From assembly GCA_026991575.1 (NCBI GenBank), contig JALXBF010000151.1:1-42165 (forward strand): a stretch of DNA of 42,165 nucleotides. Direction: 5' to 3'. The notes below the pieces were generated by a model that was not told where the DNA came from, ran no database searches, and saw nothing but the letters and a program-made list of their open reading frames with translations. The translations under genes were made by a program, and so were the position numbers. Source of the stretch: Planctomycetota bacterium (GTDB taxonomy: Bacteria; Planctomycetota; Planctomycetia; JALXBF01). Position 1 is the stretch's first letter; every line of letters begins with the position of its first letter. Positions 3-36,349 of this stretch are shown one piece after another.

Positions 3-341
3 CTGCCTGGGCTAGAGGGGTACGAGTGTCTGTGCGTGGTGGCGTTGTTGCCTGGTCGTGATCCGCTGTATGTGCTGGTTTCTCCGGCGGCGCGTGGTAG
101 GGGTCGTACACCGCAGTGGTGGGTGAACCGCTACAGGAAGCGTTGGGTGGCGGAGCAGTTGAATCGCGGTCTGAAGCAGCTGTTCGATTTGGAGAAGTTT
201 CTGGTCCGCACGTGGGTGGCGATTGAGCGGCTGATCTGGCTGTGTGCGATGGTGTTGTTCTGGATCAGTTGGTTCGCGGCCGAGCACAAGGCGGTCGTGA
301 TGTCGGAGCTGCGAAAGAAGGGGTACCTGAGCGAGGCCTGA
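3..341 (+). mobile_element. IS4-family DDE transposase, C-terminal part (5' end outside window; possibly frameshifted at the 3' end)
   Basis: Frame is open from the window edge (LPGLEGYECLCVVALLPG...). YRKRWVAEQLNRGLKQ fits the Y-x2-R-x3-E-x6-K (YREK) signature of IS4-type transposases. Confidence 0.8.
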
Positions 342-704
342 GTGCCTGTTCTACGCGTTCTGCCAGTCGATTCTGCGTGAGGATCGACCGTCGGCGGGGT
401 ACATGCCAGGGGGGCCCTGAGGGGGCGCCCGCGGAAACTCACCTCTGTCTGCTCACGGACCAGGTGCACACTGGCCGTAGGACGTGGTCGCGACGCACCG
501 TGTGCACGCCAGGGGGCTATCGCGCGCCGGTGTCGCCCACGGTCCGAGAGTGTCCCCTTCGGCACCGGAGCCTACGGAGCGCACCCCGCCTACACGCTGG
601 CATCCCGATGAGCGCTGTCTCGCGCGTACTCGCTCCCCGCGTCGCCGGGTCCAAGCTCGCTCCTGCCGCCTCCGTCAGCGACAAGCTCCAGCAGGGAAAA
701 ACGC

Positions 705-735
705 TTGACAGTCTCTCTCTCTCTTTCTCTAGACT
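705..735 (+). promoter_or_regulatory. sigma70-type promoter, TTGACA-N19-TAGACT, upstream of the 792-4807 operon
   Basis: Perfect -35 TTGACA at 705-710, TAGACT at 730-735, A-tract at 697-701; GGAGG RBS and ATG follow at 792. Spacer is 19 nt rather than the optimal 17. Confidence 0.6.
712..724. repeat. (TC)6T dinucleotide microsatellite inside the promoter spacer
   Basis: tctctctctctct read directly, followed by ttctct; I noticed no comparable tract elsewhere in the window. Confidence 0.9.
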
Positions 736-791: not shown

Positions 792-1772
792 ATGTGGCGT
801 GAGGGGCGTTTGAGCCGGCAGGCTAGCCGTAATTGGGTACGAGCGCGGCTGCCCGGTGTGCTAGTCGGAGTCGTCCTCGCAACGGCCGCAGCCGGCAAGC
901 TCGGAGCCCTTGTCCGCGAGCCCGTGGCTGCCTGGGCATTCGTCTTGGGACCGGTGGGCTACATCGCTTTATGCGCGTGGGAGGGCTTCCTGGGAACCCA
1001 GCTAGTGCTTCATCCCACTCGCTATGCCGTCGCAGCGGCTGTCGCCACTTTCGGTCTCTTTGTTGGATACCACATATGGGTTCGCGCCGGCGGTGGCGCA
1101 GCGTGCGGCTGTTTTGGCATATTGGAGGTCAGCGACGACTGGGCTCTCGCGGTCGCCGTGCTCAGCCTAGGTGCTTCGTGCGCGGCCTGGATTGGCCTCA
1201 GCCCGCATGCTAGCTACCGTCAACAACGCCTCTATTGGCCGTTGGCCATCGGCGCTGGCATTGGTTGCGCGCTGCTACTTGCGGCTAGCGTTGTCGTAGC
1301 TCAGCAGGGTGCGACAGACGGCATCCGCGTTGGCAAGAGAATCATCTGGGTCGAACCCCAGCAGTGGCTCGGTCGCCCCTTTCCGCTAAGGAGGTTCGTG
1401 ACGAGCTGGCGTCTAGAGGAGAAGGACTACGTCGCCGCGGTGATCCGCGAGGGGTGTTCGCGCTGCGACCAATTCTTGGAGCACCTAAACTCCCTACGCT
1501 GGTCCGGTAGTCCCCGGTTGGTTGTGCTGGTGGCCGACGCCAGAGATAGCTCGCCGGGCCGCATCGACTTACCAGGACCGGTATACGTCTGGAACTTGGA
1601 TTCCCGTTGGCAGTGGAGCATACCAACGCCTTCGGTGGTTCTGATTCGCGATGGCCTCGTGGTGAAGGTAGGTGATGAAAACCTGCTTCTGCAGCTTGCG
1701 CGCTGGTTTGGCATTCGTAACAGGGCAGCGGAGCCACGGGGCAGCGCTGCCGCGGTCGTCGAGGCACGGTGA
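792..1772 (+). CDS. MauE/DoxX-family membrane protein fused to a C-terminal thioredoxin-like CxxC domain
   Basis: About 5 hydrophobic helices with ACGCFG (MauE-family CGCFG motif), then a soluble domain with REGCSRC and a later PTP (cis-Pro-like). Start at ATG 792 behind GGAGG. Confidence 0.75.
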   Translation: MWREGRLSRQASRNWVRARLPGVLVGVVLATAAAGKLGALVREPVAAWAFVLGPVGYIALCAWEGFLGTQLVLHPTRYAVAAAVATFGLFVGYHIWVRAGGGAACGCFGILEVSDDWALAVAVLSLGASCAAWIGLSPHASYRQQRLYWPLAIGAGIGCALLLAASVVVAQQGATDGIRVGKRIIWVEPQQWLGRPFPLRRFVTSWRLEEKDYVAAVIREGCSRCDQFLEHLNSLRWSGSPRLVVLVADARDSSPGRIDLPGPVYVWNLDSRWQWSIPTPSVVLIRDGLVVKVGDENLLLQLARWFGIRNRAAEPRGSAAAVVEAR

Positions 1773-1811
1773 CGTGGCGCGCAACACGCCACCAGTTCCT
1801 GGAGGCAGCAG

Positions 1812-2822
1812 ATGCGCGCGTGGCTGGTGATTGCTAACGCGGCCGCCTTTGTTACACTCACCATCGGCTGCGCTCCGCGACGGGACGCGGTGGTCGTTGC
1901 AGAAACCGGACCGGTTTTCGTTAACATAGATTCCCCGAAACCGATCCGCCACACGTTCCGAGTTAAGAATGACAGCGATCACGCCGTAGCAGTGGTTAGG
2001 CTACGGACCTCTTGCAATTGCGCCCAGGCGCGCTTGACGACACACCGCCTGCCACCTGACAGCGCGACCGATCTAACCTTGTCGTACATACCCGATGGAG
2101 CATGGGGTGTGGACTCCGTCCACGCGGACGTGTTCTTCAGCGACGGAACCGTTACGCGCTATGTCTTGCGCGTGGCCTGGTTCCCCCGCCTGTACTTGTC
2201 GCCGCGACCGGTTCAGCTTTCGGTACCGCTTGGCCAACCAAAGTGGACATCGATCCGCTGCCAGCTGTTTGCACCGTCACGGCAGGCTCTTCCCGTGTAT
2301 GAGTCGCTTAACTGCACTGATGGTTTGACCTGCGAGCTAACCTCCCAGGAGGAGCAGCAGATTGGACCGCGCGTGTGGGAGAGGGCTTACGTATTTCGTG
2401 TGACCGCCGAGCCCACGGCTTCGCCAGGCCGCTATCGCGGCAGGGTACTGATGACGTTTCGTACTAACGATGGGCAAGTCCTCAATGCCTCGGCAGATGT
2501 CCACTGGACAGTGCTCCCGGTCCTGCGCTGCCGTCCACCCGTGGCAAGCCTCGGCCTAGAGGGTACCGCCACGGTCCAAGTGGTTGCGGAGGACGGCGCC
2601 GCGTTCGAAATCGTTGATGTGGCTCTTGATCCCCCCGAAGCTGCTCGGTGGCTGGCAGCAGACATCAACCCAGATGGCCGGTCCATTCGGCTGACCGCCA
2701 CTACCGCCTCCGAGCCTCAAGACACGCCCATGACCCGGCGGTGCACGGTGCGTATTCGGACAACGCATCGCAAACAGGCTGAGGTAACCTTGACGGTGCT
2801 GTCTTACGTGGTGCCCCGCTAA
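1812..2822 (+). CDS. DUF1573-domain (Ig-like) putative lipoprotein
   Basis: Signal peptide ending TIGC (lipobox-like); HTFRVKNDSDHAVAVVRLRTSCNCAQA...LPP fits the DUF1573 pattern (F.+.N....+.+..+..SCxC); further beta-rich domains follow; CTGGAGG RBS. Confidence 0.75.
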   Translation: MRAWLVIANAAAFVTLTIGCAPRRDAVVVAETGPVFVNIDSPKPIRHTFRVKNDSDHAVAVVRLRTSCNCAQARLTTHRLPPDSATDLTLSYIPDGAWGVDSVHADVFFSDGTVTRYVLRVAWFPRLYLSPRPVQLSVPLGQPKWTSIRCQLFAPSRQALPVYESLNCTDGLTCELTSQEEQQIGPRVWERAYVFRVTAEPTASPGRYRGRVLMTFRTNDGQVLNASADVHWTVLPVLRCRPPVASLGLEGTATVQVVAEDGAAFEIVDVALDPPEAARWLAADINPDGRSIRLTATTASEPQDTPMTRRCTVRIRTTHRKQAEVTLTVLSYVVPR

Positions 2823-2836
2823 CCTGGAGGTATGCC

Positions 2837-3295
2837 ATGCGCACGAGTACTTCCGTGACCACATTCGCCACGGTAGCGGTCTTGATCGCAGGTCTAGCTC
2901 CTGGCCTAGTTTTGGGGGTGGGTGACGACCAATTGTGCTACCCGGGACCACCCGTTGTAGGGGACTGCGTCACGGAGGAAGGCGACGACGAGTTTTGCCA
3001 TCTACATTTCCTCTTGGTCAGCGACACCGAGTGCGACCGGTCGCGACCCGTTCGTATGTGCACGTACAAATGGACGTGCCGGTGGGACTCAAAACGGAAG
3101 CTCTGGAGGAAAACCGAAGCCACCCTCAAAGTCTACGCTCAATGCAAGGATCCCCAAGACGTTGACGAGCCTCAAGGTTGCTGGCATTGCCCCGCGTCCC
3201 TGATTTGTAGAGTGGATCGTTTTTACCAGGATCCGTACTGCACGCGTCAGACTTCGCTGTACCGATGGTTCCGAATGCGCGAGGCCTGCTACTGA
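2837..3295 (+). CDS. Secreted cysteine-rich small protein (12 Cys in the mature region)
   Basis: Hydrophobic N-terminal signal (TFATVAVLIAGLAPGLVLG), 12 Cys counted after it, CTGGAGG RBS, 14 nt after the previous stop. Confidence 0.75.
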   Translation: MRTSTSVTTFATVAVLIAGLAPGLVLGVGDDQLCYPGPPVVGDCVTEEGDDEFCHLHFLLVSDTECDRSRPVRMCTYKWTCRWDSKRKLWRKTEATLKVYAQCKDPQDVDEPQGCWHCPASLICRVDRFYQDPYCTRQTSLYRWFRMREACY

Positions 3296-3403
3296 CGCAG
3301 GGCTCGGGCCGCCCTGCATACCGCATCCTTGCCTACTCGCCGAACGCAGCGGGCGAATGGGTCAGCGGTGAAAGGCGCAGCACATCCCTTCTGGAGGTTG
3401 GAA

Positions 3404-4807
3404 ATGCTCGGGCGAATTGCAGTCGCCGCATGTATCGCCGCACTGGGCGCTTCTGGCGGGGCCGGACTGGACCAGTCTGGGCCAGAAGCGCCACAGACAG
3501 GAGCGTTGGGCAGGGAGGAAGTGCGTGCTCTGATGGAAGCTGTGCGTGCGAATGCTGAGTCGGTCACGTCGTACTACATCCGCTATGAGAACCGTGCTTA
3601 CGCCGTGGAAGGAGAGCACGATCTCGGGCAAGCACCAGCTGAAGAGAATCTCGAATACGTAGAAACGTTCGAATGGTGGCGGTCAGACCGTCTGTGGTGC
3701 TTGCGGCACGTTCATCGCACGGTTCGTACAAGACCGTTCCGGATCGTGGATAAGGAACGTGTGAGGGATGAGGGAGAGGATCGGGAATCAGAGTTACTGG
3801 TTGAAACGGGCACAGGGGGCCCGCCGCACACAACGATCAGTGAGTGTATCGGGTACATTGGTGGAGAACTGTTCTGGTGGAGCCGACAAGGCGGTCGTGG
3901 AAACCGGATTCTACAGGGGGATATGTGGTTCACGTCAAAGAGCGACGCATGGAAATTCATCCCGTCGGGCGGAGATACTCCGGTCGTGCTCTTGCCAGGA
4001 GGAAGCCAGCCGAGCGGTCCGTACGCAGCGGTGGAGCACGCCCTCCAGGAAGGAACCGCGTTGTGGCGCCGGGGTGTCGAGCTGCTAGGCCACGAATGCG
4101 TTGTCGTTGAGGGTCCATGGCGGGAAGTTGCAGGGCAAGTGGAAGCTGGAATCGGTAACGATCAGCGCCAAACGGACAACGATGGCGCAAGCCCGCCCGA
4201 TGTCGAGATGCGCGGGTCGTGCCGCGTCTATCTCGACGTATGTTGCCCCGGACTCATTCGCGGCGCCGACGTCGTGCTGTCGGTCACCGACGAAACTGGA
4301 AACTCCGTACTCTTCGAGTCCTTTGTGCGGACAGCAGAGGCACGCAAGGTCGACGGACGGGCGTGGGTTGCTTGGGAGCTCCGGACCTGGCAAAGATTGC
4401 AAAGCACGGACGAGTCGCAGGACGCTGGTCGCGCTACTGTGATCATCGGCCGCGTGAAGAGTTGCGAGTTCAGAGAGCTACGAGACGACGAGCCGGGTAT
4501 CGAGCTTCCTGCACGCACACGTGTTTATTCGTACGACCGAGAGGATGCCGTGTACGAGCAGCTACGGCCCATCCGCCTGACCACTACAAACTTCGCCTCC
4601 TGGCACAAGCGTGTGCTGAACAGGCTCGGACCGCCCGAGCTCGTGCTGGGTGGTGTCCCTCCGGGAGCAGCATACCGCGACAAGACCGGGGCGCTCGACG
4701 TGCCGGGCTTCGTGCTCGTGGCCCTGCTTCTGGCAGCTCCAGCTGCACTGTTGCTCCTGGTGCACTGGTGGCGCCGCCGTAGCGACACGGCACCTGGAGA
4801 GAATTGA
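3404..4807 (+). CDS. Exported protein with C-terminal membrane anchor (unknown function; beta-rich, possibly LolA-like fold)
   Basis: ATG 3404 behind CTGGAGG; signal peptide MLGRIAVAACIAALGASGGA; C-terminal VPGF + hydrophobic helix + WWRRR. The fold call is inference only. Confidence 0.7.
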   Translation: MLGRIAVAACIAALGASGGAGLDQSGPEAPQTGALGREEVRALMEAVRANAESVTSYYIRYENRAYAVEGEHDLGQAPAEENLEYVETFEWWRSDRLWCLRHVHRTVRTRPFRIVDKERVRDEGEDRESELLVETGTGGPPHTTISECIGYIGGELFWWSRQGGRGNRILQGDMWFTSKSDAWKFIPSGGDTPVVLLPGGSQPSGPYAAVEHALQEGTALWRRGVELLGHECVVVEGPWREVAGQVEAGIGNDQRQTDNDGASPPDVEMRGSCRVYLDVCCPGLIRGADVVLSVTDETGNSVLFESFVRTAEARKVDGRAWVAWELRTWQRLQSTDESQDAGRATVIIGRVKSCEFRELRDDEPGIELPARTRVYSYDREDAVYEQLRPIRLTTTNFASWHKRVLNRLGPPELVLGGVPPGAAYRDKTGALDVPGFVLVALLLAAPAALLLLVHWWRRRSDTAPGEN

Positions 4808-5736
4808 ACACCGGCACTGCACCCGGGCGCTGGCGGATAGGTCCGTGTCGCGAGACAGATGGTTCGCCTCCAACCGCGGAACAAAACAGGCCAAATAGTG
4901 CGCCGAAGGTCCTCTGTGGCCGGTCACAGTGCAGGCGTACGTCTGCAATCGGCATGGTCATCAATACGCGCATTGGCCAGGAGGAGCGGGGCTCAGCCGA
5001 AGGGGGAGCCTGTGGCAAAGCCGGGACGGCCGCTGACCTGGGTTCATGATGTTGTTACACCAGTTCGTACTCTATCGGGCAGACCGATGCTCATCGGCGG
5101 GCTCGACATAGCAGAGGCTTCGGCAATTGACCGCGACCTGTCCGAGGAACTCCCGCGGGCCCACCCGCTGCACAGGCGAGGGCTGCAGCGTGCGCCTCGC
5201 TCCCCGGATGTCCGGTCCCGCAGCAGGTGCGGCCAGTATGTCTACCGGCTACAACCAAGGAGCTGCGTCACCGGCTCATCGACAGTCGGCACGGGACTAA
5301 CACTGGCAATACAGCGATATTCGGAGGCACCGCCGGTTGCATCACACGGTGCGCGTCGTATGATTGCGACGCACTGTCCGGCTAGAGCACACCGGCCCGT
5401 CGCAGCCCCTACCGGGCTTTGGCGCGGGGGCCTTGCCAGCTCATGGTCGGCGCATGCAACCACGGGCTGCGAGTCACAATCCGCGGCACCGTCGCTTCGG
5501 CAAGCGGAGCACGGAACGCATGAGTGGTTCCAGCCGTCCCGGAGCGCAACGCTTGGCCTGCTCGCAACGACAGCATGCATCTGGAAGCACCTGGATACGG
5601 CGGAGCCAGTCGAGGATGCCGGCATCGTTCAGATCCCCGGTGTGAGCAGCGCGATACGGATAGGGTGCAGACTTTCGGATTGCCTCAGCCGCAACTGGCT
5701 GACACCGAGCTGTCCATAACGCGGTGAGCACTTGCC

Positions 5737-7563
5737 ATGGATCGTACAACCTGGCGCTGGGTGTTCGTCACGGCCGTTACGCTGGTGACCGCTGCCTGTG
5801 CCGGCGCGCAGCTTATCAGGCAAGATTCGTACTTCTCAATGGAGCTGCGACTGTTCCTGGCAGGATTGCACCGATGGTGTGGTGACGCAGAGGATCCCGT
5901 GATCCTTCCCCAAGGGATACGGCTGGCTCCAATGGCCGTCGCTGCTCCCGCGGTATTCGGCGCGCTTCCTGCATGGACGCTGGATCGACGGAACTTATCG
6001 GGGCAAGCCGCCGGCCCGCCCCCGTGGCTGACAATGGACACACTGGTCGACACCGCTGGCCCAGGCCCGGTGCTAGCTGCGCTGCGTCTGGGAAGAATCG
6101 TCGTCTTAAGTCTCTGGATTGCAAGCATCTGGCTACTCTGGTTGGTCCTGCGGCGATACGGGCACGCCGCAGCCACCACCGCTATCGTCTTCTATGCTTT
6201 CAGCCCTAGTTTCTTGTCGTTTGGCCACTTGTTATCTAGCGACACACTGGCCTGTGTCGCTGCCATTGCGGCGTGCGCTGCAATGAGCTGGTACGTTGTT
6301 CGTCCGGGACCAGCGCGGGCCGGAGTCGCTGGCGCAGCTATCGCCGCCGGAATCAGTACAAAACTCTCGCTGATTGTCCTGGTCCCGTCATGGGTATTCG
6401 CCACCTATGCAGCGGGAGCGACGCTGTATCAGGGATCAGCAGCTAGGGTGCTGGGTAGACTGCTGTGGCATACCGTGGTCGCGCTCGTAGTTGCCTGGGC
6501 GGTGCTAGGGGCCATTCACGGCTTCTCGTACGGGTATCCGCCCCCGTACGAACGCCCGATGAGCGCTACCGTTGCCCGATACTTGTCGGGCCAATCAGCC
6601 TTGGGCATGTGGGGACCGACGATTGCACGGATCATCCCGGCAGAACTTCTCCGCGCGGTAGACGCACAGTGCCGCTCTCACGAGACGTACATCGCTCCCG
6701 TGCGCGTGCTCGGGCAGTGGTTCACAACAGGCACGCCGCTGTATTACATCGGAACAGCAGTTGCCAAAGAACCGGTCGGCTTTGTGGTGGTCCTTGCGGC
6801 AGCATTGCTCGTTGCGGTGTGCATCGTCTGTTGGCCGTTCTCCCAGGAGGCTCGATATGTGGTCCCATTTGCAGCCTTCAGCCTGCTCTTGCTTGTGGTA
6901 GCGTCAACGATGCCAGGTTACCAGGACTACCGCTACGTCCTCCCCGCGCTTGCAGTGTTGCCGGCCTGTACAGCGTACTGCCTGAGCACTGCGCCGCGAC
7001 CCGTGTGCACAGTACTGTACCTCGCCACCTGGCTCGGCGCCATAGAGGGGCTGGGTGCCTGGCCGCATTACACGGCGTTCGTAAACGTGGTGGGCCACTA
7101 TGCTGCCGGGGATGGGCACCGATTGGTGGATCCCAAAACCGTGTACCGGACACAGGACCTATTCCGTCTGCGTGAATGGCTGAGCAGACATCCGCAGGTG
7201 GAGATTGTCGCCTTAGACATCGATACAGGAGAAGCACCGCTGGCCCTTTATGGCCTGCCCAAGCCACCTGCTGCAGCGCGACTGGCCCATTCGCAAGGGA
7301 CCGTCAGCTCCAACAGCACCCATCGGTTCGTGCAACCCGGCTGGTACGTCATGCACAAGAGCCTTGTGGCTGACGATCCGCTCGCAGTTGTGACCACGGA
7401 CGGTGGGTGGCCTGGCTCGAGATCCGTGTATGACTACCTCCGGGGAAAGCGCCCTGACATCACTGTGGGTACCACCATCTACGCCTATCAGCTGACACGT
7501 GACGATTGTCGACGTATCACCCAGACGGTTCCCGCCGCTCTGAGCTATCCACGCCAGCAGTGA
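5737..7563 (+). CDS. GT-C fold polytopic glycosyltransferase (PMT/GT39-ArnT-like), divergent
   Basis: 608 aa, many TM helices; motifs FSPSFLSFGHLLSSD, TKLS, YYIGTAVAKEP, RYVLPA, QDLFRLREWL, PGWY resemble planctomycete GT39-like proteins. Confidence 0.7.
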   Translation: MDRTTWRWVFVTAVTLVTAACAGAQLIRQDSYFSMELRLFLAGLHRWCGDAEDPVILPQGIRLAPMAVAAPAVFGALPAWTLDRRNLSGQAAGPPPWLTMDTLVDTAGPGPVLAALRLGRIVVLSLWIASIWLLWLVLRRYGHAAATTAIVFYAFSPSFLSFGHLLSSDTLACVAAIAACAAMSWYVVRPGPARAGVAGAAIAAGISTKLSLIVLVPSWVFATYAAGATLYQGSAARVLGRLLWHTVVALVVAWAVLGAIHGFSYGYPPPYERPMSATVARYLSGQSALGMWGPTIARIIPAELLRAVDAQCRSHETYIAPVRVLGQWFTTGTPLYYIGTAVAKEPVGFVVVLAAALLVAVCIVCWPFSQEARYVVPFAAFSLLLLVVASTMPGYQDYRYVLPALAVLPACTAYCLSTAPRPVCTVLYLATWLGAIEGLGAWPHYTAFVNVVGHYAAGDGHRLVDPKTVYRTQDLFRLREWLSRHPQVEIVALDIDTGEAPLALYGLPKPPAAARLAHSQGTVSSNSTHRFVQPGWYVMHKSLVADDPLAVVTTDGGWPGSRSVYDYLRGKRPDITVGTTIYAYQLTRDDCRRITQTVPAALSYPRQQ

Positions 7564-16044: not shown

Positions 16045-16734
16045 ATGAGCTTGCAGCGTACTGTGCTGAGTGCCCTGGTCAGCGTGGTCGTGTTTGCAGC
16101 CCTGGTCGCCGTGCTCGGCCAACGCCATCCTGGCGTGGCAGACGAAGAGAAGTGGATCCCATTGTTCAATGGCAAGGACCTCAGCGGCTGGGACACCTTC
16201 ATCGATCCCCGCGCCGAGGGCGTGAAACCCGAGGACATCTGGTCTGTGAAGGACGGCGTGATCATCTGCCAGGGACAGGTGAACGGCTACTTGATCACGC
16301 AGAAGGAGTACGACAACTATGTTCTGAAGCTGCAGTGGCGCTGGGGTGAGAAGATCCACCGCGGCCGCAACAGTGGTGTGTTCGTACACGTGGTGGGGCC
16401 GAACCGGATCTGGCCGAAAGGGATTGAGGCGCAGCTCATGTCGGGCCATGCCGGAGACTTCTGGCTGGTCGGCGGAGCCACGCTGAAGATCGATCCTCGT
16501 CGCCGGGATCCGCGCATCTCGCGACACTATTTCCGGATCAAGGACGGCGTGGAGAAGCCGATCGGGCACTGGAACCAGTACGAGATCATCTGCAAGGGCG
16601 ACACGATCCGGTTGATCATTAACGGCCAGCTCGTCAACGAAGGGACCGATGCCGATCCTTGCCGCGGCAAGATTCTGCTGCAGTCGGAAGGGGCCGAGAT
16701 TCACTTTCGCGATATCAAGCTGAAGAAGCTCTAG
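16045..16734 (+). CDS. DUF1080 family protein (second paralog)
   Basis: LFNGKDLSGW, YDNYVLKLQWRW, NSGVF, GHWNQYEI, GKILLQSEG, FRDIKLK; GAGGAGG RBS before ATG 16045. Confidence 0.92.
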   Translation: MSLQRTVLSALVSVVVFAALVAVLGQRHPGVADEEKWIPLFNGKDLSGWDTFIDPRAEGVKPEDIWSVKDGVIICQGQVNGYLITQKEYDNYVLKLQWRWGEKIHRGRNSGVFVHVVGPNRIWPKGIEAQLMSGHAGDFWLVGGATLKIDPRRRDPRISRHYFRIKDGVEKPIGHWNQYEIICKGDTIRLIINGQLVNEGTDADPCRGKILLQSEGAEIHFRDIKLKKL

Positions 16735-16862: not shown

Positions 16863-19118
16863 TCACTTCTTTTCGGCCTGTTCCAGGATTTCGATGAGCT
16901 TGCGGCCCAGCGAGCTTTGCTTCAACTTGTCCATCAGGCCGGTCGTTTCGGCCGGCTCGGCGGCTCGGCCCCGCGCCCTGCCCCTGCGCCGGCGACGCTT
17001 TGCAGGCTCCGAACCAACCGCTTGCTTCTGCTCGGCCGCCGACTCGTCGATATGCTCGATCTTTGGGATCAGCTTCCGCTCGGCAAGCCCCCACGCCGTG
17101 GAGGCCAGGAAATACAGGCAGAGGCCGGAGGGGAGCTTGTAGAAGATGAGCAGCGTGAAGATGGTCATCATGACCATGGTCATTCGCTGTTGTGCCTGGA
17201 TCTCGGGATCCGGCGATGGTGGCGTCAGCCATTTCTGCTGATAGTACATCAGAACCAGCGACAGGACAGGCAGCAGATTGAAGTATGGGCCAAGGATCGG
17301 CAACGAGACCCCGAACGGGAAGAGCATGTCGGGGGCGGCAAGGTTATCGATCCAGAGCACGAACGGAGCCTGTCTGAGTTCGACGGCGCTGGACAAAGCA
17401 CGCCAGAGGCCGACGAAGATAGGCATTTGGACCAGCAGTGGCAAGCAGCCCTGAAGGGGAGCCAGGGGGTTCACGCCATGCTTGCGGTACAGCTCCAGTG
17501 TGGCCCGGCCGAGTGCTTCGCGGTCGCCCTTGTACTTCTCCTTTAGCTTGTCCAGTTCCGGCTTCAGCGCCGCCATCTTCTTCTGCATCCGCTGGCTCAT
17601 GATGATCTGCCGCCTCGTCAGCGGGTGCATGGCCAGCCGGACGACCACCGTTAGCAGGATGATTGCCACGCCCCAGTTGGGAACGATCCGATGGAAGAGC
17701 TTCAGAATGCTCAGCATCAGCCGGGCAATGCCGCTGAACATGCCGTAGTTCGTAACGTAGCCGGCCAGATCGCTCCGCCCCACTGCGGCAACGAACGTGG
17801 CTTCATCCCTGGGACCAACATACAGTCGGTACCGATGGCTGACGCGTGCTCCCGGCTTCAGCTCCACCGGCTTGCTGCGGATCAATACACCCGGATCGCT
17901 CAGGTCGGGATGGTCCACGTAGATCGTGTTCAGCACCGGCCAGACCTCTGCGATGGCCGATGCAGCCTGCTTCCCGGGCAACAACAACGCACAGAAGTAC
18001 TGATTCTCGGTACCGGCAAAGTCGACTCGATCCAGAAGGTCCCAGCGGTCGTCACGGCCCGCGGTCACGTGCACATAAAGTAGTGCCTCGGAGGGTGACA
18101 GCTTGTTGTCTCCGTTGAGATCGAACTCGTCAGGCCAGGGCTCAACGGTTGCCTCCGTCCACTCTGACCGCTCGATCGTGCCGTCTCTGTTGCCGTCCAG
18201 CTCCCCGAGCCTTTCGGCAAGCCGCCGGCAGGACTTCGCCAGCGACGCGGCATAGTGCGTTCCCCGCTTCGCAGCCCCGTCGCGGACCAGCGCCAGAGCC
18301 ACCTCGCGCTTGGTCCAGGCATACCACCAGCCCTCCAACACCGTGCCACGCGGTCCGTAGAGCCAGTACGCAAGGCTCTGCTCCTGTTGACCCGGGTTCT
18401 CCAGGGCAATCTCCACGTCGATCGCGTACTTACCCTTCCACACCGTGTACGTCTTGGTGACCTTGATCCCTGAGCGAGGCAGCGACCGCCAGAAACGGAC
18501 ACGTACGCCGGCTTCGCTTCCATCCTTGCCGGTCACGGGCGTCGGCCCCTCCACGTGCCAGGGCCGTCGGGCAAGATCGGCATGTTCGGACGGCACATCC
18601 AGTGCTGCAGTACCGAACGGAATGCCGTTCACCGTACGCCACGGGCCGGACGGCTCGGTCATCGCCAACAGGGTCAATGGCCCGGTCTGCTGCTCGTTCT
18701 TGAACCGGTTCAGCACGACCTCTTCAATGCATGCTCCAACGTTCCGGAAGCGAACCTGAATGAGGTAATCCGAATCGGGCCGATCGGATCCAACGGTCAC
18801 AGGGGGCTGGACGGCGACCCGTTCCACGGCCTCGTTCTCGTTCTGGCCGTCACCGTCGCGCTGCTTGGCTCCTACGTCCGGCTTGCCAGCATCCCCCGCA
18901 GCCACTGCAGGCGGTTCAGCCGTGTTGCTCCCGGCTGCCGGTTTCTCTTCAGCCAGATCTGTTCGTCGTTCTTGGCGTTGCTCTTCCTGCTTGTCGCGGG
19001 CAACCTGTTTGCGGGCTGGTTGCGGTGGCACAGGCCAGATCCAGCGCACGACGGTCGGCGTGACCAAGATGATGGCCGTGGACAGGATTAGGAAAAGGAA
19101 GTACCGCCTCTCGATCAT
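16863..19118 (-). CDS. yidC: Membrane protein insertase YidC (with EF-hand pair insertion)
   Basis: N-terminal TM; NWGVAIILLTVVVRLAMHPL, ELYRKHGVNP, GCLPLLVQMPIF, ELRQAPFVLWIDNLAAPD, PSGLCLY. Start at MIERRY (19118). Confidence 0.95.
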   Translation of the reverse strand: MIERRYFLFLILSTAIILVTPTVVRWIWPVPPQPARKQVARDKQEEQRQERRTDLAEEKPAAGSNTAEPPAVAAGDAGKPDVGAKQRDGDGQNENEAVERVAVQPPVTVGSDRPDSDYLIQVRFRNVGACIEEVVLNRFKNEQQTGPLTLLAMTEPSGPWRTVNGIPFGTAALDVPSEHADLARRPWHVEGPTPVTGKDGSEAGVRVRFWRSLPRSGIKVTKTYTVWKGKYAIDVEIALENPGQQEQSLAYWLYGPRGTVLEGWWYAWTKREVALALVRDGAAKRGTHYAASLAKSCRRLAERLGELDGNRDGTIERSEWTEATVEPWPDEFDLNGDNKLSPSEALLYVHVTAGRDDRWDLLDRVDFAGTENQYFCALLLPGKQAASAIAEVWPVLNTIYVDHPDLSDPGVLIRSKPVELKPGARVSHRYRLYVGPRDEATFVAAVGRSDLAGYVTNYGMFSGIARLMLSILKLFHRIVPNWGVAIILLTVVVRLAMHPLTRRQIIMSQRMQKKMAALKPELDKLKEKYKGDREALGRATLELYRKHGVNPLAPLQGCLPLLVQMPIFVGLWRALSSAVELRQAPFVLWIDNLAAPDMLFPFGVSLPILGPYFNLLPVLSLVLMYYQQKWLTPPSPDPEIQAQQRMTMVMMTIFTLLIFYKLPSGLCLYFLASTAWGLAERKLIPKIEHIDESAAEQKQAVGSEPAKRRRRRGRARGRAAEPAETTGLMDKLKQSSLGRKLIEILEQAEKK

Positions 19119-19358
19119 GTCCCTGGTTCCCGGAGGACGAAGCGCACGCCGTGCGGAAAGTTGCTCAATTCTATCCGGTGGCTCACGCGCAACCGCTTCG
19201 ATGGCCGAATGCGACGTCGGGAGCGGGTCCCAACAGGCGCCTCCGGAGCTTCGGGCTAGCTTGGCTGGAGCGGGCCGTGGCACGAGCGAGCCGTGGGCGG
19301 CGCGTCGTTGCCGTGATCGAGACCGTGGTTGGGTGTTGTTTCAGGCTGCTGCCCAGGG

Positions 19359-29057: not shown

Positions 29058-30644
29058 CTACCGCTTGGCCACCTGCGGGCCGTTCTCCGGCGGCAGCTCT
29101 TCGGAGAGCGGATCGAACCACTCCTTCTTGAACTCGATCCGCGACTCGGTGTCCATTGCCAGGTTCCCCACCAGAGCAATCACGGCATCGGCCAGGCCGA
29201 CGTCCCCGTTGCAGCGGTGGGCACGGTAGAGCTCATCGAAGCTGGCATCGTTGTAGGAACGAATGAGGTAAGCGAGGTGCTCGAGTTCTTCGCGGTAGCC
29301 CCGGCTGAGCCGGCCCTGGGCCACGGCAGCCCGAGCCGCGGCGACGTCGACCGTGCCGGGCTGAGTGGCGGTCGAATCGAGTACCGGCTCATTGGCCGGC
29401 CCTCGGCTGACCGTCACGTACGTACTCCGCGGCGGTGTGCCGCCGGGACGTCGTTCAGGGAACAGGTAGACCTCTTGCTCCTGGGCCAGGATCAGCGTGC
29501 CGCGCGTGCCGTAGATCGTCTCACCATAAGGCTCGAACGCGTTGGTGTTGATGGACGAGTAGGTGACGACGCGCACGTCATCGCGATTGCGGACGGAGCC
29601 GTCTTCGCCGAAATACTCTTCGCCCGGGAACTCATAGATCAAGAACACATGGTCGTCCACTTCGCGGTCGTCCTTGTAGAACGACTTCACCCCCACACCA
29701 CTGACGGCCACCGGGTGCACGCCGCCCAGGAAGATGCTGCAGGCGTCCAGCTGATGGCTGCCCAGCTCCACCAGCAGGCCACCGCCCGTACGGCGGTATA
29801 GCCGCCATCGAACCAGCTCCTCTAAGCTGCGGTAGCCCCACTTCTTGGGATCGATCTGGCGGTCCTCTTCCGGAATCGGCCGCCGCCAGCTGTCGCGCAG
29901 CACCGGAATGCCGTTCTCCATCTTCGGAACCAGCTTGCCCGTCTTTGGATCCTTCACGTAGACGGGCCATGTGTTGTTGCGGTGCCAGAGCGCGCGGATG
30001 TGCCGGATGTCGCCGAGCACGCCGCTGCGTAGCACGCTGACCGCGTGGTCGTACAACAAGCTGTAATGGCGCTGGTGTCCGACGGCCAACAACCGCTTCT
30101 CCTGCCGGGCAACACGGCACATCTCCTTGGCCTGGCTGACCCGACGGGCCATCAGTTTCTCGGTGAAGACATGCTTGCCGGCCTTCATCGCGTCGATGGC
30201 CACCGGGGCGTGCAGGTGGAGCGGCAGCGCGATGACGACCAACTCAATGTCCGGATCGGCCAGCAGCCGGCGGTAGTCTTCGTGGTAGTCCTTGGAGCGT
30301 TCCTCGATCTTCTTAGCGGTTTCAACCCCGTACTTTCGCTTGAAACCGATCCTGGCGTTGTTCCCCTCGCCCTCCATCGTGCGGCGTCGGTTGGACGGGC
30401 GGATATCACAGTAGGCGATGAATTCCAGGTACTCAGGGTTACTTTCCGTGATCAGGATGTTGCCCTGGTCGCCCGTGCCGATGATGCCTGCCCGTACCGG
30501 CCGGTTCGGTTTCTCATAGCCAAAGTAAAATGCCCCGGCTGCGGGCAAGGCGAGCGCAGCCTTGAGGAAGTCGCGTCGGGTAAAGCCGACGACAGTTTCA
30601 AAGTTGCGCTGACCACGGAGTTTTTCTTCAGGCGTCAATACCAT
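29058..30644 (-). CDS. Tat-exported Gfo/Idh/MocA-family oxidoreductase
   Basis: TRRDFLK, GIIGTGDQG, GKHVFTEK, VGHQRH, WRLY...GGGLLVELGSHQLD; GAGGTG RBS before ATG 30644. Confidence 0.92.
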   Translation of the reverse strand: MVLTPEEKLRGQRNFETVVGFTRRDFLKAALALPAAGAFYFGYEKPNRPVRAGIIGTGDQGNILITESNPEYLEFIAYCDIRPSNRRRTMEGEGNNARIGFKRKYGVETAKKIEERSKDYHEDYRRLLADPDIELVVIALPLHLHAPVAIDAMKAGKHVFTEKLMARRVSQAKEMCRVARQEKRLLAVGHQRHYSLLYDHAVSVLRSGVLGDIRHIRALWHRNNTWPVYVKDPKTGKLVPKMENGIPVLRDSWRRPIPEEDRQIDPKKWGYRSLEELVRWRLYRRTGGGLLVELGSHQLDACSIFLGGVHPVAVSGVGVKSFYKDDREVDDHVFLIYEFPGEEYFGEDGSVRNRDDVRVVTYSSINTNAFEPYGETIYGTRGTLILAQEQEVYLFPERRPGGTPPRSTYVTVSRGPANEPVLDSTATQPGTVDVAAARAAVAQGRLSRGYREELEHLAYLIRSYNDASFDELYRAHRCNGDVGLADAVIALVGNLAMDTESRIEFKKEWFDPLSEELPPENGPQVAKR

Positions 30645-30765
30645 CGCGATCACCTCTTTGCGTGCCAGAGCCTTGCTCACTCACCCTCGCGGCGCACTTG
30701 GGCGCCGCCCGCATCGGGCCGGGGAACTAACCCATCCATGGCATTCTAGTTGCGATTGTCGATCG

Positions 30766-31800
30766 CTACCCGGGCCGCCTCACCGGCTCCGGCCTCGGAC
30801 GCACGACCGCATCGTCCACTTTGCCGAAGATCCGATAGGCCAGCCGGCGCGTGATCAGACCACGGATGAGGGCATCGAGTCCGATCCAGCGGCCCGTGGG
30901 GGTTGTGGCCAGGACCAGTGCCGCCAGGGCCTCGATCAGCTCTTTGTTCACGATCATGTAGCTGCCGCCGTCTGGCGAAATCACCGGCAGGCCAGGCCAG
31001 GGCGGATGCGCCAGGTAGACGCTCAACAGAAACGCCGCCGCCCCCAGCGACGCCAGCCGACTGAACAAACCGACCAGCATGCATGCGCCGATGACGGTCA
31101 GCCCGTACATGACGGCGAGGTTGATGCGGCCAAGGGGATCGTCCGGCAGCGGCCAGACCACCAGCCAGAACGCCCACCAGGGCTTCTGCTGAGCCGCCTG
31201 CCGCTGCTGGTCCGTGACCAGGCTCTCCAGATGCCGCTCCAGCTGCTCTGTCCAACCGTCCACCCACTTGAACAGCTGCTCCCCTTTCTCGCGCGCCGCC
31301 TGTCGCAGCTGCTGCAGCTGCGTAGCGCCCCATTCGACCCACTTCCCCTGCTCCAGCTGGCGCTGCTCGTGTTCACGGATCCGGTCCACCAGCGCGCGGT
31401 AGTCCTCAATTTCCTGTTGCACCGCCTCGTCCGCAAAGAACTCCTCGACCTTCGCACGCAACTGCTCAAGCTTTGCCTCTGCCTGCCCGACCTGTTCGGG
31501 CGAGAACCCGTACCGGCGGGCATAGCGGTCGATCATCTCCCGCCAGGATGCCAGCAGCGACTCCTTCTCCAGCTTTCTCAGACCATATGGGTCAGGCACA
31601 AACTGCACGTAGTACTGACGGAACGGGCCGGTGGCAGAAGCCAGGAACGGTTCGGCGGTGAATGGCCGGCGGGCATCGGACGGGTTGCGGTACGAGTCGA
31701 GCTTGGTGAGGCCTTCATAGAGGAAATGCCAGCCAATCGCAACGCGCAGCAGGATCAGGAAGAACGCAGCCAGAATCCCAATCCGAATGCCCTTGGTCAC
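30766..31800 (-). CDS. DoxX/DoxD-family membrane protein with large extracytoplasmic helical insertion
   Basis: LRVAIGWHFLYEGLTK, GACMLVGLFSRLA, YLAHPPWPG, VNKELIE, GLD; long charged helical loop between TM1 and TM2; GTG start at 31800. Confidence 0.85.
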   Translation of the reverse strand: MTKGIRIGILAAFFLILLRVAIGWHFLYEGLTKLDSYRNPSDARRPFTAEPFLASATGPFRQYYVQFVPDPYGLRKLEKESLLASWREMIDRYARRYGFSPEQVGQAEAKLEQLRAKVEEFFADEAVQQEIEDYRALVDRIREHEQRQLEQGKWVEWGATQLQQLRQAAREKGEQLFKWVDGWTEQLERHLESLVTDQQRQAAQQKPWWAFWLVVWPLPDDPLGRINLAVMYGLTVIGACMLVGLFSRLASLGAAAFLLSVYLAHPPWPGLPVISPDGGSYMIVNKELIEALAALVLATTPTGRWIGLDALIRGLITRRLAYRIFGKVDDAVVRPRPEPVRRPG

Positions 31801-31879
31801 GGAAGCAACCCTCCGAGGAGCGTTCGCCAGGCCGGGTGGGATGTCGGCGGGCACGAGGCGGACTGGCCCAAACCACGAT

Positions 31880-32968
31880 TCAACAGTTAAAGTCTAACGA
31901 CTCGCGGCTGACTGGGCCAAGAGCGCATAGCTCCAGCCGCTCACTCCCAGTGGTGACCTCGCCGTCGGACCAGACCAGAATAGCACTCAGCTCAGGATGC
32001 CGGGCGCAGAAAGCCTCAGCAGCTTCACGTCCCATGACCAGCAAGGCCGTCGCCAGAGCATCCGCCGTAGCGGCATCCGGCGCGATAACCGACGCCTGCA
32101 ACAGCCCTTCGGCGGGCCAGCCCGTTCGCGGGTCAAGCACGTGCCCGTACCGCCGACCGCGATCGTCGACGAAACGGATCAGGTTGGAAGCGGTTCCGAG
32201 CGCCTCGTTGCGGAGCGACACAGTGACCAACCGACGCTTCGGGTCAAGCGGGTTGGCAATCCCGACACGCCAGCCGTCCGCAGCAGGGCTGCCAACGGCC
32301 AACACGCTGCTGGCACCACCTTGAAGCAACACCGGCAACTCTCCCGCCAGGGTCCGTATTCGCCACGCCGCCCGGTCCAGTGCGTAGCCCTTCCCGATGC
32401 TGCCAAAGTTCAACTGGACCCCGTCCTTAAGGAAACGCACCGTGCGCCGCTCTCGGTCCAACGCCACCCAGCGGCTGCCCGATCGGCTCATGGCATCGGC
32501 AAGCTCCCCGGCATCGGGCACACGGCGCGGCCCGTGCACGAAGCCCCAGGCGTGGATTACGCTGCCGATTGCCACGTCAAACGCCCCATCCGTCTGTCGG
32601 TAAAGCGCCAAGCTCTGCTCCAGCAGCTCGTACAATTCGGCTGACACGGGCACAGCCTGCCCTGCAGCCGCTCGATTCACGCGGGCAACCTCGCTGCGAT
32701 CGTGGTAGACCGTGAGGCGGTTTTCCAGTTCTTCGATCAGGTCCAGTGCCGCGGTGGCTACGTCGACGGCGCCGCCGGCGGCCGCGGGCATACAGATACT
32801 GAATGTCGTTCCCATTGCGTACCGGCTGACGCGCAGCAATTCCAGTTCGGGCTCTGCTCCAGTTGCTCCCGAACCGATTGCCTCGTTCACTGCACCGCGT
32901 ACGGCTTCGAGCAGAGCCTTGCCGCGGAGAAAGTCCCGCCGGGTTGGTCGACGTGTCGAGTCGCTCAT
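31880..32968 (-). CDS. apbE: FAD:protein FMN transferase ApbE
   Basis: AMGT, SEVARVN, TDGAFDV, LNFGSIGKGYALD, WRVGIANP, YGHVLDPRTGWP, ADALATA; N-terminal TRRDFL. Confidence 0.95.
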   Translation of the reverse strand: MSDSTRRPTRRDFLRGKALLEAVRGAVNEAIGSGATGAEPELELLRVSRYAMGTTFSICMPAAAGGAVDVATAALDLIEELENRLTVYHDRSEVARVNRAAAGQAVPVSAELYELLEQSLALYRQTDGAFDVAIGSVIHAWGFVHGPRRVPDAGELADAMSRSGSRWVALDRERRTVRFLKDGVQLNFGSIGKGYALDRAAWRIRTLAGELPVLLQGGASSVLAVGSPAADGWRVGIANPLDPKRRLVTVSLRNEALGTASNLIRFVDDRGRRYGHVLDPRTGWPAEGLLQASVIAPDAATADALATALLVMGREAAEAFCARHPELSAILVWSDGEVTTGSERLELCALGPVSRESLDFNC

Positions 32969-33250
32969 CGGACCTGCCACATTCAAGTTGTCCCTATTGC
33001 CAAATTATCCGATCCACCTCCGCAGCAGGTCCTCCCCGCAATCCTCGCACGGCACGGCCCACCGCCGCGTTCGGCCGAGCCGCGCCGGCTTTCGGTCCAG
33101 TCCCACCGCCGACGTCGAGGTCCGGAAGCAACGGGCTGCAGCTCGCCATGCCAGAGGCTGCCTCGCCGGCGGTCGAACGCTCGCAAGTGGCAGGGGCTGG
33201 CAAGGTGCGTCCTTCGGTCGCGCAAGGGCCGAATCTGACACTGGTTGACA

Positions 33251-33306: not shown

Positions 33307-33708
33307 GTGATACGCACCTGGCTGCGTTGTGCACTGGTTGCTCTGTTGGCCTTCGCGCCGGTCCCCTGCAGTGGGGAGTGCAGCTGCTGTGCGCAGCGCG
33401 ATCCGGGAGCCGGCCTTCCCGAACTGTCCGGCACGTCTGGTTGTTGCCGCCCCGACTATGGCGTCCAGCTCCAGCGGCAGCATTGCGAATGCGACAACTT
33501 CAGGGTGCGTGACCGTGCCCGCGTTGAGCGGAATGACACGCTGACCATTTGCCACCAGCTCTCTGCGATGACGGCTGTGTGGTCTTGCTCTACGCCTGGC
33601 GCGTGCACCGAAGATGGCTGCGGCCAAGCCAGGCATGATGGCCCGAACCAACTCGCGCAGCTCGGTCACACTGAGATCCGCTTGGTCATCTCCTCGCTAC
33701 TGCTCTAA
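33307..33708 (+). CDS. Small Cys-rich exported protein upstream of metal efflux genes (possible metal-binding or leader protein)
   Basis: GAGAGG RBS, hydrophobic N-terminus, 13 Cys including CSCC, CC and CEC, hydrophobic C-terminal end IRLVISSLLL. Confidence 0.65.
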   Translation: MIRTWLRCALVALLAFAPVPCSGECSCCAQRDPGAGLPELSGTSGCCRPDYGVQLQRQHCECDNFRVRDRARVERNDTLTICHQLSAMTAVWSCSTPGACTEDGCGQARHDGPNQLAQLGHTEIRLVISSLLL

Positions 33709-33812
33709 CCTTCTCCTGCGCACTGTCGGCACGACGGTCGGTGCCCCTGCGCACCGTAGCATGGTTCGTTGAGCATTTCGCTAGCCGGTCATCGATACCC
33801 CGGAGCAGCGCC

Positions 33813-36296: not shown

Positions 36297-36349
36297 CGCC
36301 CAGCGATCACGACCGCAGACGACCTTATGCAACCGATCGGACAAGAGCC

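Follow-up and report, generated by a model that had tools for sequence, protein, structure and literature searches.

Several described systems resemble, each in part, the locus considered here, a block of five co-oriented genes on the plus strand (positions 792 to 7563) that includes a secreted mini-protein with 12 cysteines. The block lies in a stretch of 42,165 nucleotides from a Planctomycetota bacterium (assembly GCA_026991575.1, contig JALXBF010000151.1), which is referred to in full as the window and is contig C151 of a 4.96-Mb genome with a completeness of 97.8%. We regard the block with high confidence as one copy of a widespread maturation and export cassette, which is apparently undescribed. 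As to function, the reading that we prefer, tentatively, is that the block may belong, as one unit among others, to a phase-variable repertoire in which exported effectors are matched by cognate partners and which would serve in cell–cell interaction in a toxin-immunity-like manner; it draws on gene order, cassette structure, the surplus of partners and the bacteriocin-type leader.

Relation to described systems

Contingency loci such as hif of Haemophilus and porA of Neisseria carry repeats in the spacer between the −35 and −10 hexamers, and promoter-spacer repeats cause phase variation in other bacteria. The cassette promoters share this design, a simple repeat between the hexamers and a spacer length that differs from the optimum by a whole number of units, but here 15 such promoters, with mono-, di- or trinucleotide units, control one gene family in a planctomycete, and switching is predicted. 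Double-glycine bacteriocins and microcins are processed by C39-ABC transporters. As in those systems, the related cassettes have a leader that tracks C39, an adjacent candidate immunity gene and disulfides; unlike in those systems, the leader sits behind a Sec signal and the C39 protein is itself exported, with no fusion to an ABC transporter. The NVEALA loci of Bacteroidota form further background.

The mauE-mauD genes and methylamine dehydrogenase's small subunit parallel the block in the CXC-FG motif and Lys/Glu residues of MauE, in the thioredoxin partner and in a client with six disulfides. No methylamine dehydrogenase gene (mauA, mauB or mauG) was found among the 27 window open reading frames (ORFs) scanned, however, and the present system differs further in its hypervariable clients, LolA-fold partner, DUF1573, GT-C glycosyltransferase, C39 and repeat promoter.

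Bufferins, in the available part of their description (PMC11626156), are Sec-exported, cysteine-rich precursors of about 80–150 amino acids encoded beside a DoxX-type membrane oxidoreductase, and the mini-proteins could by analogy be metal-binding or redox-buffering peptides of the periplasm, a reading that also finds a Cus-type efflux pair in the window on its side. Bufferins nevertheless need MNIO (DUF692) and DUF2063 for their thiooxazoles, with no partner, GT-C or C39 described for them in that part of the article, and no MNIO, DUF2063, DUF2282 or BUF_6/12Cys precursor was found in the scan of the window or among 60 proteins of related loci. The extreme sequence diversity, the cognate partner and the repeat promoters are also unlike a stress-induced metallophore, and cysteine counts are mostly even (32 of 44 cassette peptides). 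We consider this the least probable of the explanations weighed here.

Polymorphic toxin-immunity systems, as far as the available part of PMC3482391 goes, resemble the cassettes in having a variable gene followed by its partner, arrays with constant flanks and surplus orphan partners, and their polyimmunity loci are comparable to the partner-only arrays described below. The cassettes differ in having no large delivery domain and no known toxin or immunity domain; neither LolA nor disulfide occurs in that part of the article. The cassette falls outside mau clusters, bufferins and C39-ABC bacteriocins and has no known toxin domain. An earlier note on this DNA had stated that no characterized locus of this make-up was known, and a literature search, with supplements and subscription journals outside its coverage, agrees in having found no description. 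It returned nothing on DUF1573 and MauE together and nothing on NVEALA, and the system is not described in the available parts of PMC8567305 and PMC12419801.

Recurrence and organization of the cassette

All five ORFs claimed in that note are present. The first four starts are preceded by GGAGG, extended to CTGGAGG at the last three of these, and the four genes, separated by 39, 14, and 108 nt, encode a MauE-thioredoxin fusion (792–1772), a DUF1573 protein (1812–2822), the mini-protein (2837–3295), and an anchored LolA-fold protein (3404–4807). The GT-C gene (5737–7563) does follow downstream as claimed, but a gap of 929 nt (4808–5736) intervenes and its start lacks GGAGG. This gap, in which no gene was called, has no second copy in the genome, is non-coding according to our own codon model, and corresponds to about 210 nt in the relative genome G001 and about 300 nt in a paralogous locus on contig C104. 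A 286-aa ORF within it (4859–5719) was ruled out as a gene, since it matches no family, has no paralog, and gets no support from codon usage.

Loci of this genome were mapped with our own gene caller and hidden Markov models. Related loci were sampled with a 6-sequence GT-C alignment, which replaced a 16-sequence alignment too diverse for the locus search; it confirmed 468 stretches in a species-level genome collection, of which 80 were kept. A further 120 regions for comparison (60 top-scoring DUF1573 loci and 60 MauE loci) were hand-picked from longer match lists by contig position and score range.

About 20 related loci, with about 20 secreted Cys-rich ORFs, were found in this genome, and an unbiased genome-wide scan for such ORFs yielded 28 candidates, 15 of which were placed in cassettes by eye. 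The gene order of the window is repeated in the C104 paralog, and the order DUF1573, Cys ORF, anchored protein, GT-C is kept in G001. Of the 80 loci, 41 have an anchored protein co-oriented with GT-C, 36 a Cys ORF, 29 DUF1573, 18 MauE and 11 C39; mini-protein, partner, and GT-C stand together in 33, and the exact five-gene set of the window in 8. With either strand counted, a Cys ORF occurs in 41 of the 80 GT-C loci versus 4 of the 60 top-scoring DUF1573 loci and 16 of the 60 MauE loci. The expectation that the accessory genes would recur round variable secreted Cys-rich ORFs is thus borne out by C104, G001, and the GT-C loci. The mini-protein with its partner makes up the constant core, to which MauE, DUF1573, and a periplasmic C39 peptidase may or may not be added. 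Neither the repeat promoter nor the variant with C39 and leader had figured in the earlier account.

A simpler explanation would be a loose island, in which a MauE with a housekeeping role and a GT-C of the envelope (ArnT-like or of S-layer type) happen to lie beside an unrelated secreted gene pair. MauE is described as a generalist in the available part of a preprint (bioRxiv 10.64898/2026.03.05.709764), DsbB and VKOR were not found in this 97.8%-complete genome, 33 of the 80 GT-C loci (some on short contigs) have no other cassette gene, and an insertion sequence (IS) lies just upstream of the block. We nonetheless find such an arrangement quite improbable, given that all four MauE matches of the genome search and an additional copy on contig C63 lie inside cassettes, that domain fusions recur, that a single promoter type is common to the cassettes and that gene order in GT-C loci is conserved across families.

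The mini-protein and its anchored partner

The mini-protein (2837–3295, 152 aa), the variable cargo of the cassette, has a predicted Sec signal and the 12 cysteines previously counted, enough for six disulfides. It belongs to no Pfam or NCBIfam family, 14 related peptides are equally without a family match and without a recognized toxin or delivery domain, and ESM Atlas gave no usable match for it. A paralog on C104 is 31–34% identical and an ortholog in G001, the sole match among 60 relatives, 48% identical; homologues amount to only 4 proteins, and the 1 metagenome locus is the G001 copy. Eleven cysteines align as invariant across the copies, the twelfth being shifted by one column in the C104 copy, and in the comparison of window and G001 the proportion of nonsynonymous differences (pN 0.40) is well below the saturated synonymous one (pS 0.74). 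Because the cysteines are conserved and pN lies well below pS, the ORF appears to be a real gene. The structure predicted from a 5-sequence alignment reached a mean local confidence (pLDDT) of 41.9, too low to count as a confident fold. Secreted Cys-rich ORFs also occur outside cassettes, on C8 (26023–26547), C20 (20812–21444), C122 (14628–15089), and C175 (9807–10196), the last an orphan resembling the peptide family of C16, C139, and C33.

The gene that follows (3404–4807) encodes an exported protein of 467 aa without a Pfam family, ending in a transmembrane segment and the basic tail RRRS, and presumed to be the cognate partner of the mini-protein. Its model (pLDDT 71.8; predicted template-modeling score 0.70) has the open beta-sheet of the LolA/LolB/RseB superfamily: Foldseek gave an E value of 8e-7, with RseB among the top matches, the top five VIA rows were DUF1329, LolA or LolB-type chains (Z 11.1–12.7), and PDB entries 4z48 (DUF1329), 9tp6 (LolA3), 3bk5, and 2p4b (RseB) superimpose with Z 12.1–12.7 over 211–216 residues at a root-mean-square deviation of 3.9–4.4. 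It differs from that superfamily in its identity of about 8%, in its C-terminal membrane anchor and in having at least 40 fast-evolving paralogs per genome, and lipoprotein transport is not implied. Homologues of the window partner number 5 representatives in one search and 3 matches in another, and among its 30 nearest Atlas matches, all to unnamed clusters, the top three are mostly from Planctomycetota. The partners of other loci form one very divergent family. Fifty proteins of this genome have the signal-to-anchor shape, 37 of them judged partner-like, and about ten more lie outside the filter.

Pairing was counted on 44 cassette peptides, after 3 of the 47 Cys ORFs in GT-C loci had been dropped as non-cassette. 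Thirty-four abut an anchored protein, 27 of them in the order peptide then partner. Four tandem peptide-partner units on C63, and two peptides among three partners on C74, share one enzyme set. Within these arrays the signal peptides are near-identical in DNA (synonymous divergence, dS, 0–0.23), as are the C63 anchor segments (dS 0.07–0.09), while peptide cores have diverged in 4 of 5 comparisons (dS 0.65–2.6; the other 0.20) and partner ectodomains range from dS 0.7 to saturated; nonsynonymous divergence is below dS in all array comparisons. The arrays may be read as variable cassettes between homogenized flanks. Partner genes outnumber peptides, and peptide-less arrays occur, with five partners on C63 and three after one peptide on C150. 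What had been taken for an accessory anchor is better described as a constant, co-varying partner of LolA/RseB fold, and cognate pairing of mini-protein and partner is probable.

The peptide-less array of C63 (1–7471, minus strand) consists of a repeat promoter, a MauE-like ORF without the CGC motif, and a tandem row of five partner genes, for which no peptide was found; it is a candidate poly-immunity array. On C129 (8028–9375) an ORF that has a CxxC domain but lacks the MauE CGC motif, and is possibly degenerate, stands behind a repeat promoter and is followed by an 8-Cys peptide and a partner. In more distant planctomycetes, loci with MauE and a Cys peptide (L083, L085, L090, L092, L115, L119, L126; L093, L094, L118) have substitutes for the LolA-fold partner, either proteins with a CarboxypepD_reg domain or paired exported proteins of about 320 aa without a family; CHAT-TPR genes adjoin in L085 and L130.

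The RseB match, together with the joint divergence of peptide cores and ectodomains, would also suit ligand-receptor signaling or kin recognition, with the mini-protein as a pheromone and the anchored protein as a periplasmic sensor of RseB/MucB type. The cytoplasmic tail of the partner is short, however, and no recurring kinase, sigma, or anti-sigma gene was noticed in the cassettes, which were not scanned systematically for them; we judge signaling unlikely.

The C39 peptidase and the double-glycine leader

A double-glycine-type leader is present in 11 of the 12 peptides that have C39 within 6 kb versus 1 of the 32 that do not (Fisher p 2e-8, with kin that are not independent), or 1 of 35 when the dropped rows are counted. 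The idea of such a leader predates the 80-locus set, having come from this genome and two MauE loci, and the exact pattern was fixed on that set. The C39 proteins of related loci have a hydrophobic N-terminus as called in 18 of 24 cases and occur alone or fused to DUF1573, rhodanese, or partner. Examples are a partner-like domain fused to C39 in L119 (12071–13738, minus strand) and C39 fused to rhodanese in L081 (9466–10506, minus strand). The window peptide has no double-glycine leader, and the window has no C39.

Repeat promoters and probable phase variation

A sigma-70-like promoter (705–735, plus strand) lies upstream of the block, with the hexamers TTGACA and TAGACT separated by a 19-nt spacer that contains (TC)6 at 712–723. 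Loss of one TC unit would yield the canonical 17-nt spacer. A stock promoter scan gave no match, because it permits only spacers of 16–18 nt. Among the 1606 TTGAC[AT] sites of the genome, a perfect repeat of at least 10 nt follows 16, and 15 of those 16 precede cassette genes; with ten other hexamers as control, a repeat follows in 11 of 12,105 sites. A looser scan for TTG[ACT]C with a repeat (79 sites) was dropped as noisy in favor of this strict one. Measured to the best −10 box, the spacers are 15, 15, 27, 23, 17, and 19 nt for dinucleotide units, and 19, 35, 11, 11, 14, 14, 20, 11, and 29 nt for trinucleotide units, the 29 being to a weaker box by eye. Whole units would bring all but one of these promoters to 17 nt, where only one now sits; several promoters are paralogous and the −10 box was chosen by hand, hence no p-value is attached to this set. 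Unit number varies between duplicated promoters (12/4/4 on C63, 10/5 on C74).

Five sites in G001 match the pattern, and 4 of them have genuine tracts, each upstream of a DUF1573 gene and with a spacer of 19–23. A poly-G version of the promoter occurs at 15 sites in 13 of 201 genomes of the class (control 1), preceding cassettes at 8 sites, DUF1559 prepilin-type genes at 2, very long ORFs at 2, and other genes at 3. The AGG/GAA pattern has five matches in this genome and occurs in two other genomes of the 201, where the one inspected precedes a rhodanese-like gene. A strict scan detects repeat promoters in 5 of the 80 GT-C loci and in none of the 120 others, so that they appear to be near-general only in this family. 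That 15 of the 16 repeat promoters of the genome and 8 of the 15 class-wide poly-G promoters precede cassettes suggests phase variation, and we are fairly confident that the cassettes switch in this way. Poly-G spacer promoters (14 and 11 nt) also stand before homologous ORFs of 2,300–2,450 aa in two genomes (L277, 777–7778; L283, 505–7857, minus strand), whose products are candidates for phase-variable large proteins. On C153 a DUF1559 prepilin-type gene has an (AC)6 tract without TTGAC (16411–16422) some 500 bp upstream.

Variable surface display is the main rival to the effector reading and comes close behind it, although in itself doubtful. The mini-protein would then be an adhesin, a pilus tip or a decoy, the LolA-fold protein its cognate carrier or anchor, and DUF1573 a PapD-like chaperone, GT-C would glycosylate the displayed product, and phase variation would serve evasion of phages or predators, or substrate choice. 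Phase variation itself fits this, as do the repeat promoters before the two DUF1559 genes and two 2,300–2,450-aa ORFs, the presence of DUF1559 genes in 47 of 80 GT-C loci versus 10 of 60 and 8 of 60 other loci, the carrier fold of LolA, the partner-C39 fusion in L119 and the acidic peptides (median net charge −5; window copy −2). Peptide-less arrays and orphan partners are harder to square with a chaperone, and no DUF1559 gene is present in the window. A double-glycine pro-leader that can be cleaved off is, moreover, typical of bioactive peptides that are released.

Predicted disulfide formation by MauE, and the DUF1573 protein

The first gene (792–1772) encodes 326 aa with the CGCFG motif and CxxC domain that had been described. 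K36, E64, and C105-G-C107-F-G agree with the CXC-FG motif and the Lys/Glu residues of helices 1 and 2 in DsbB-like MauE, and the C-terminal domain, with C222-x-x-C225, has a profile that matches thioredoxins and protein disulfide isomerases in the PDB. The score against Pfam MauE (PF07291) was 24 bits in the window scan, where the cut-off is 27, and 27.1 bits in the genome search. All 17 aligned relatives match MauE, and E64, both CXC and both CxxC cysteines are invariant in 17/17. The product is predicted to be a self-contained disulfide generator. The available part of the preprint cited above reports two MauE proteins that replace DsbB and require CXC, and a fused thioredoxin in 8.2% of MauE entries; a search of it for terms found no Planctomycetes, operons, or gene neighbors.

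MauE had been supposed to serve its neighboring peptide alone, which does not hold: about 5 MauE genes stand against about 20 peptides in this genome, and MauE is a generalist in that preprint. The G001 ortholog locus has no MauE in cis and two MauE genes lie elsewhere in that genome, so MauE appears to be shared rather than private. The earlier idea of a dedicated maturation pathway stands in part, as the accessory genes recur and both the MauE motif and a true thioredoxin fold are present, but it fails in that MauE is shared and the anchored protein is a partner.

The DUF1573 protein (1812–2822, 336 aa) is an exported, Ig-like, probable lipoprotein, as had been noted, with a DUF1573 score of 36.6 bits, a lipobox-like TIGC and the SCNC motif; its relatives also match HYDIN/VesB-like Ig and PapD-like models. 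The CxC is a feature of the family at large, being present in 44 of 52 non-cassette members and in 20 of 29 from GT-C loci, and the available part of PMC9312934 lists a variant with selenocysteine (UGC), which suggests redox activity. Fusions across loci join MauE to DUF1573 (six), C39 to DUF1573 (six) and partner to C39 (one clear case). The top-scoring DUF1573 loci lie mostly in conserved non-cassette contexts, and since only 4 of 60 contain a Cys ORF, three of them cassette-like, DUF1573 alone is no marker of the cassette. Locus L111 (9572–10048) encodes a secreted 19-Cys precursor with CKG repeats, divergent from a MauE/DoxX match, which we take to be bufferin- or oxazolin-like.

The GT-C glycosyltransferase

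The 608-aa membrane protein of 5737–7563 scores 25 bits against PMT_2 (cut-off 26.1) and belongs to a subfamily that is largely planctomycete, with 79 of the 80 related loci titled Planctomycetota. In the D/N-E motif of the first external loop, 111 relatives have E36 in 100 cases and Asp (68) or Asn (17) at position 35, where the window protein and its G001 ortholog have Met; R120, P157, D169, Q311, K344, R399-Y400, and D474 are retained. Profile A4 gave GPI mannosyltransferase 1 as its sole and weak PDB match (E 0.011), profile A8 gave none in the PDB, and 9 of 42 members weakly match an Agl23 model, so that no characterized GT-C subfamily (ArnT, PMT, or DPY19) can be assigned from profile comparisons. 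The earlier suggestion that the peptide may be glycosylated is weakened by the Met at position 35 and by the 33 of 80 GT-C loci that have no other cassette gene. Neither an N-x-S/T sequon nor a WxxW/C motif occurs in the window peptide.

A possible mode of action

On the effector reading, the operon would be transcribed from 705–735, and slippage in the TC tract would toggle the spacer length, with 19 nt as the weak and 17 nt as the strong state and expression in a subset of cells. The mini-protein would leave by Sec, and in cassettes that contain C39 the periplasmic peptidase would trim the double-glycine-type pro-leader, which the window copy lacks. MauE, for which this role is established, would here pass oxidizing equivalents through the fused thioredoxin to form six disulfides, perhaps with the CxC-bearing DUF1573 protein as helper. 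The anchored LolA-fold protein would specifically bind its own mini-protein, most likely as an immunity or neutralizing partner, and the mini-protein would be an effector used against, or to recognize, neighboring cells. The weakest step is the last, in which GT-C would transfer, on the periplasmic side, a lipid-linked sugar to one of the cassette products.

Several observations weigh against this reading. A single on/off promoter for effector and immunity would leave OFF cells exposed to their ON siblings. No outer-membrane exporter was identified in the cassettes, many of whose neighbors are unannotated. The G001 ortholog locus, besides lacking MauE, has no repeat promoter directly upstream, and the sequence similarity that ties the window partner to the rest of its family is weak (E 0.0036; hhalign 20%). 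One-to-one pairing has exceptions: L066, L190, and L236 have two peptides per partner, and on C63 peptides 0 and 1 share 92% identity but their partners 64%. A part in processing is suggested by the partner-C39 fusion in L119. The association of leader and C39 weakens beyond the tuning set (3/4 vs. 2/19) and in this genome (3/4 vs. 3/12, the three C39-less leader peptides being C63 paralogs). The peptides, finally, are mostly acidic, which membrane-lytic bacteriocins generally are not.

Other features of the window

Positions 3–690 (plus strand), outside the cassette, hold the 3′ end of a multicopy DDE transposase (IS4/IS701-like; 3–341) and the element tail, which stops about 15 bp short of the −35 box. 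The IS4 transposase reported next to the block is a DDE fragment at the contig edge that reaches 28 of 152 bits for IS4_2, with IS701 a close second (NCBIfam). Seven IS copies have a placeable tail, and 3 end directly upstream of a cassette (window 3–690, C6 near 89944, and C92 near 10955, all in this genome), 2 of these within 15 bp of the −35 box; this may reflect a targeting preference, or selection for altered expression.

Further along, a 13-Cys ORF with a signal-like N-terminus (33307–33708, minus strand) is divergent from the CusB/CusA-type efflux pair (33741–40306, plus strand), and similar ORFs occur on C183 and in L227. An ApbE flavin transferase, a DoxX/DoxD membrane protein and a Tat-exported Gfo/Idh/MocA oxidoreductase lie in a row at 29058–32986 (minus strand), and a long YidC with weak EF-hand matches in its periplasmic part is encoded at 16863–19283 (minus strand).

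Implications

The cassettes may, if a rather more speculative step is allowed, represent a previously undescribed planctomycete class of polymorphic interaction system, in which dozens of Sec-exported, disulfide-knotted mini-proteins, each with a membrane-anchored LolA-fold receptor or immunity protein, would mature wholly outside the cytoplasm (through MauE-thioredoxin, periplasmic C39 and glycosylation by GT-C), be reshuffled as cassettes between conserved flanks and be expressed a few at a time from repeat-tuned promoters, as a stochastic code for self/non-self recognition or antagonism. The cassette gives a testable context to planctomycete families that had lacked an explanation, namely DUF1573, the LolA-fold family with its many paralogs here, and the GT-C subfamily of the 468 stretches, and hints at the clients folded by many MauE-thioredoxin fusions. 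It also suggests that bacteria hold a large stock of disulfide-rich mini-proteins, hardly annotated so far, and a maturation route that is entirely periplasmic, and it offers a candidate for phase variation on the scale of a whole planctomycete genome. If this is true, most cassettes would appear silent in bulk cultures, and the promoter allele that switches one on would be predictable.

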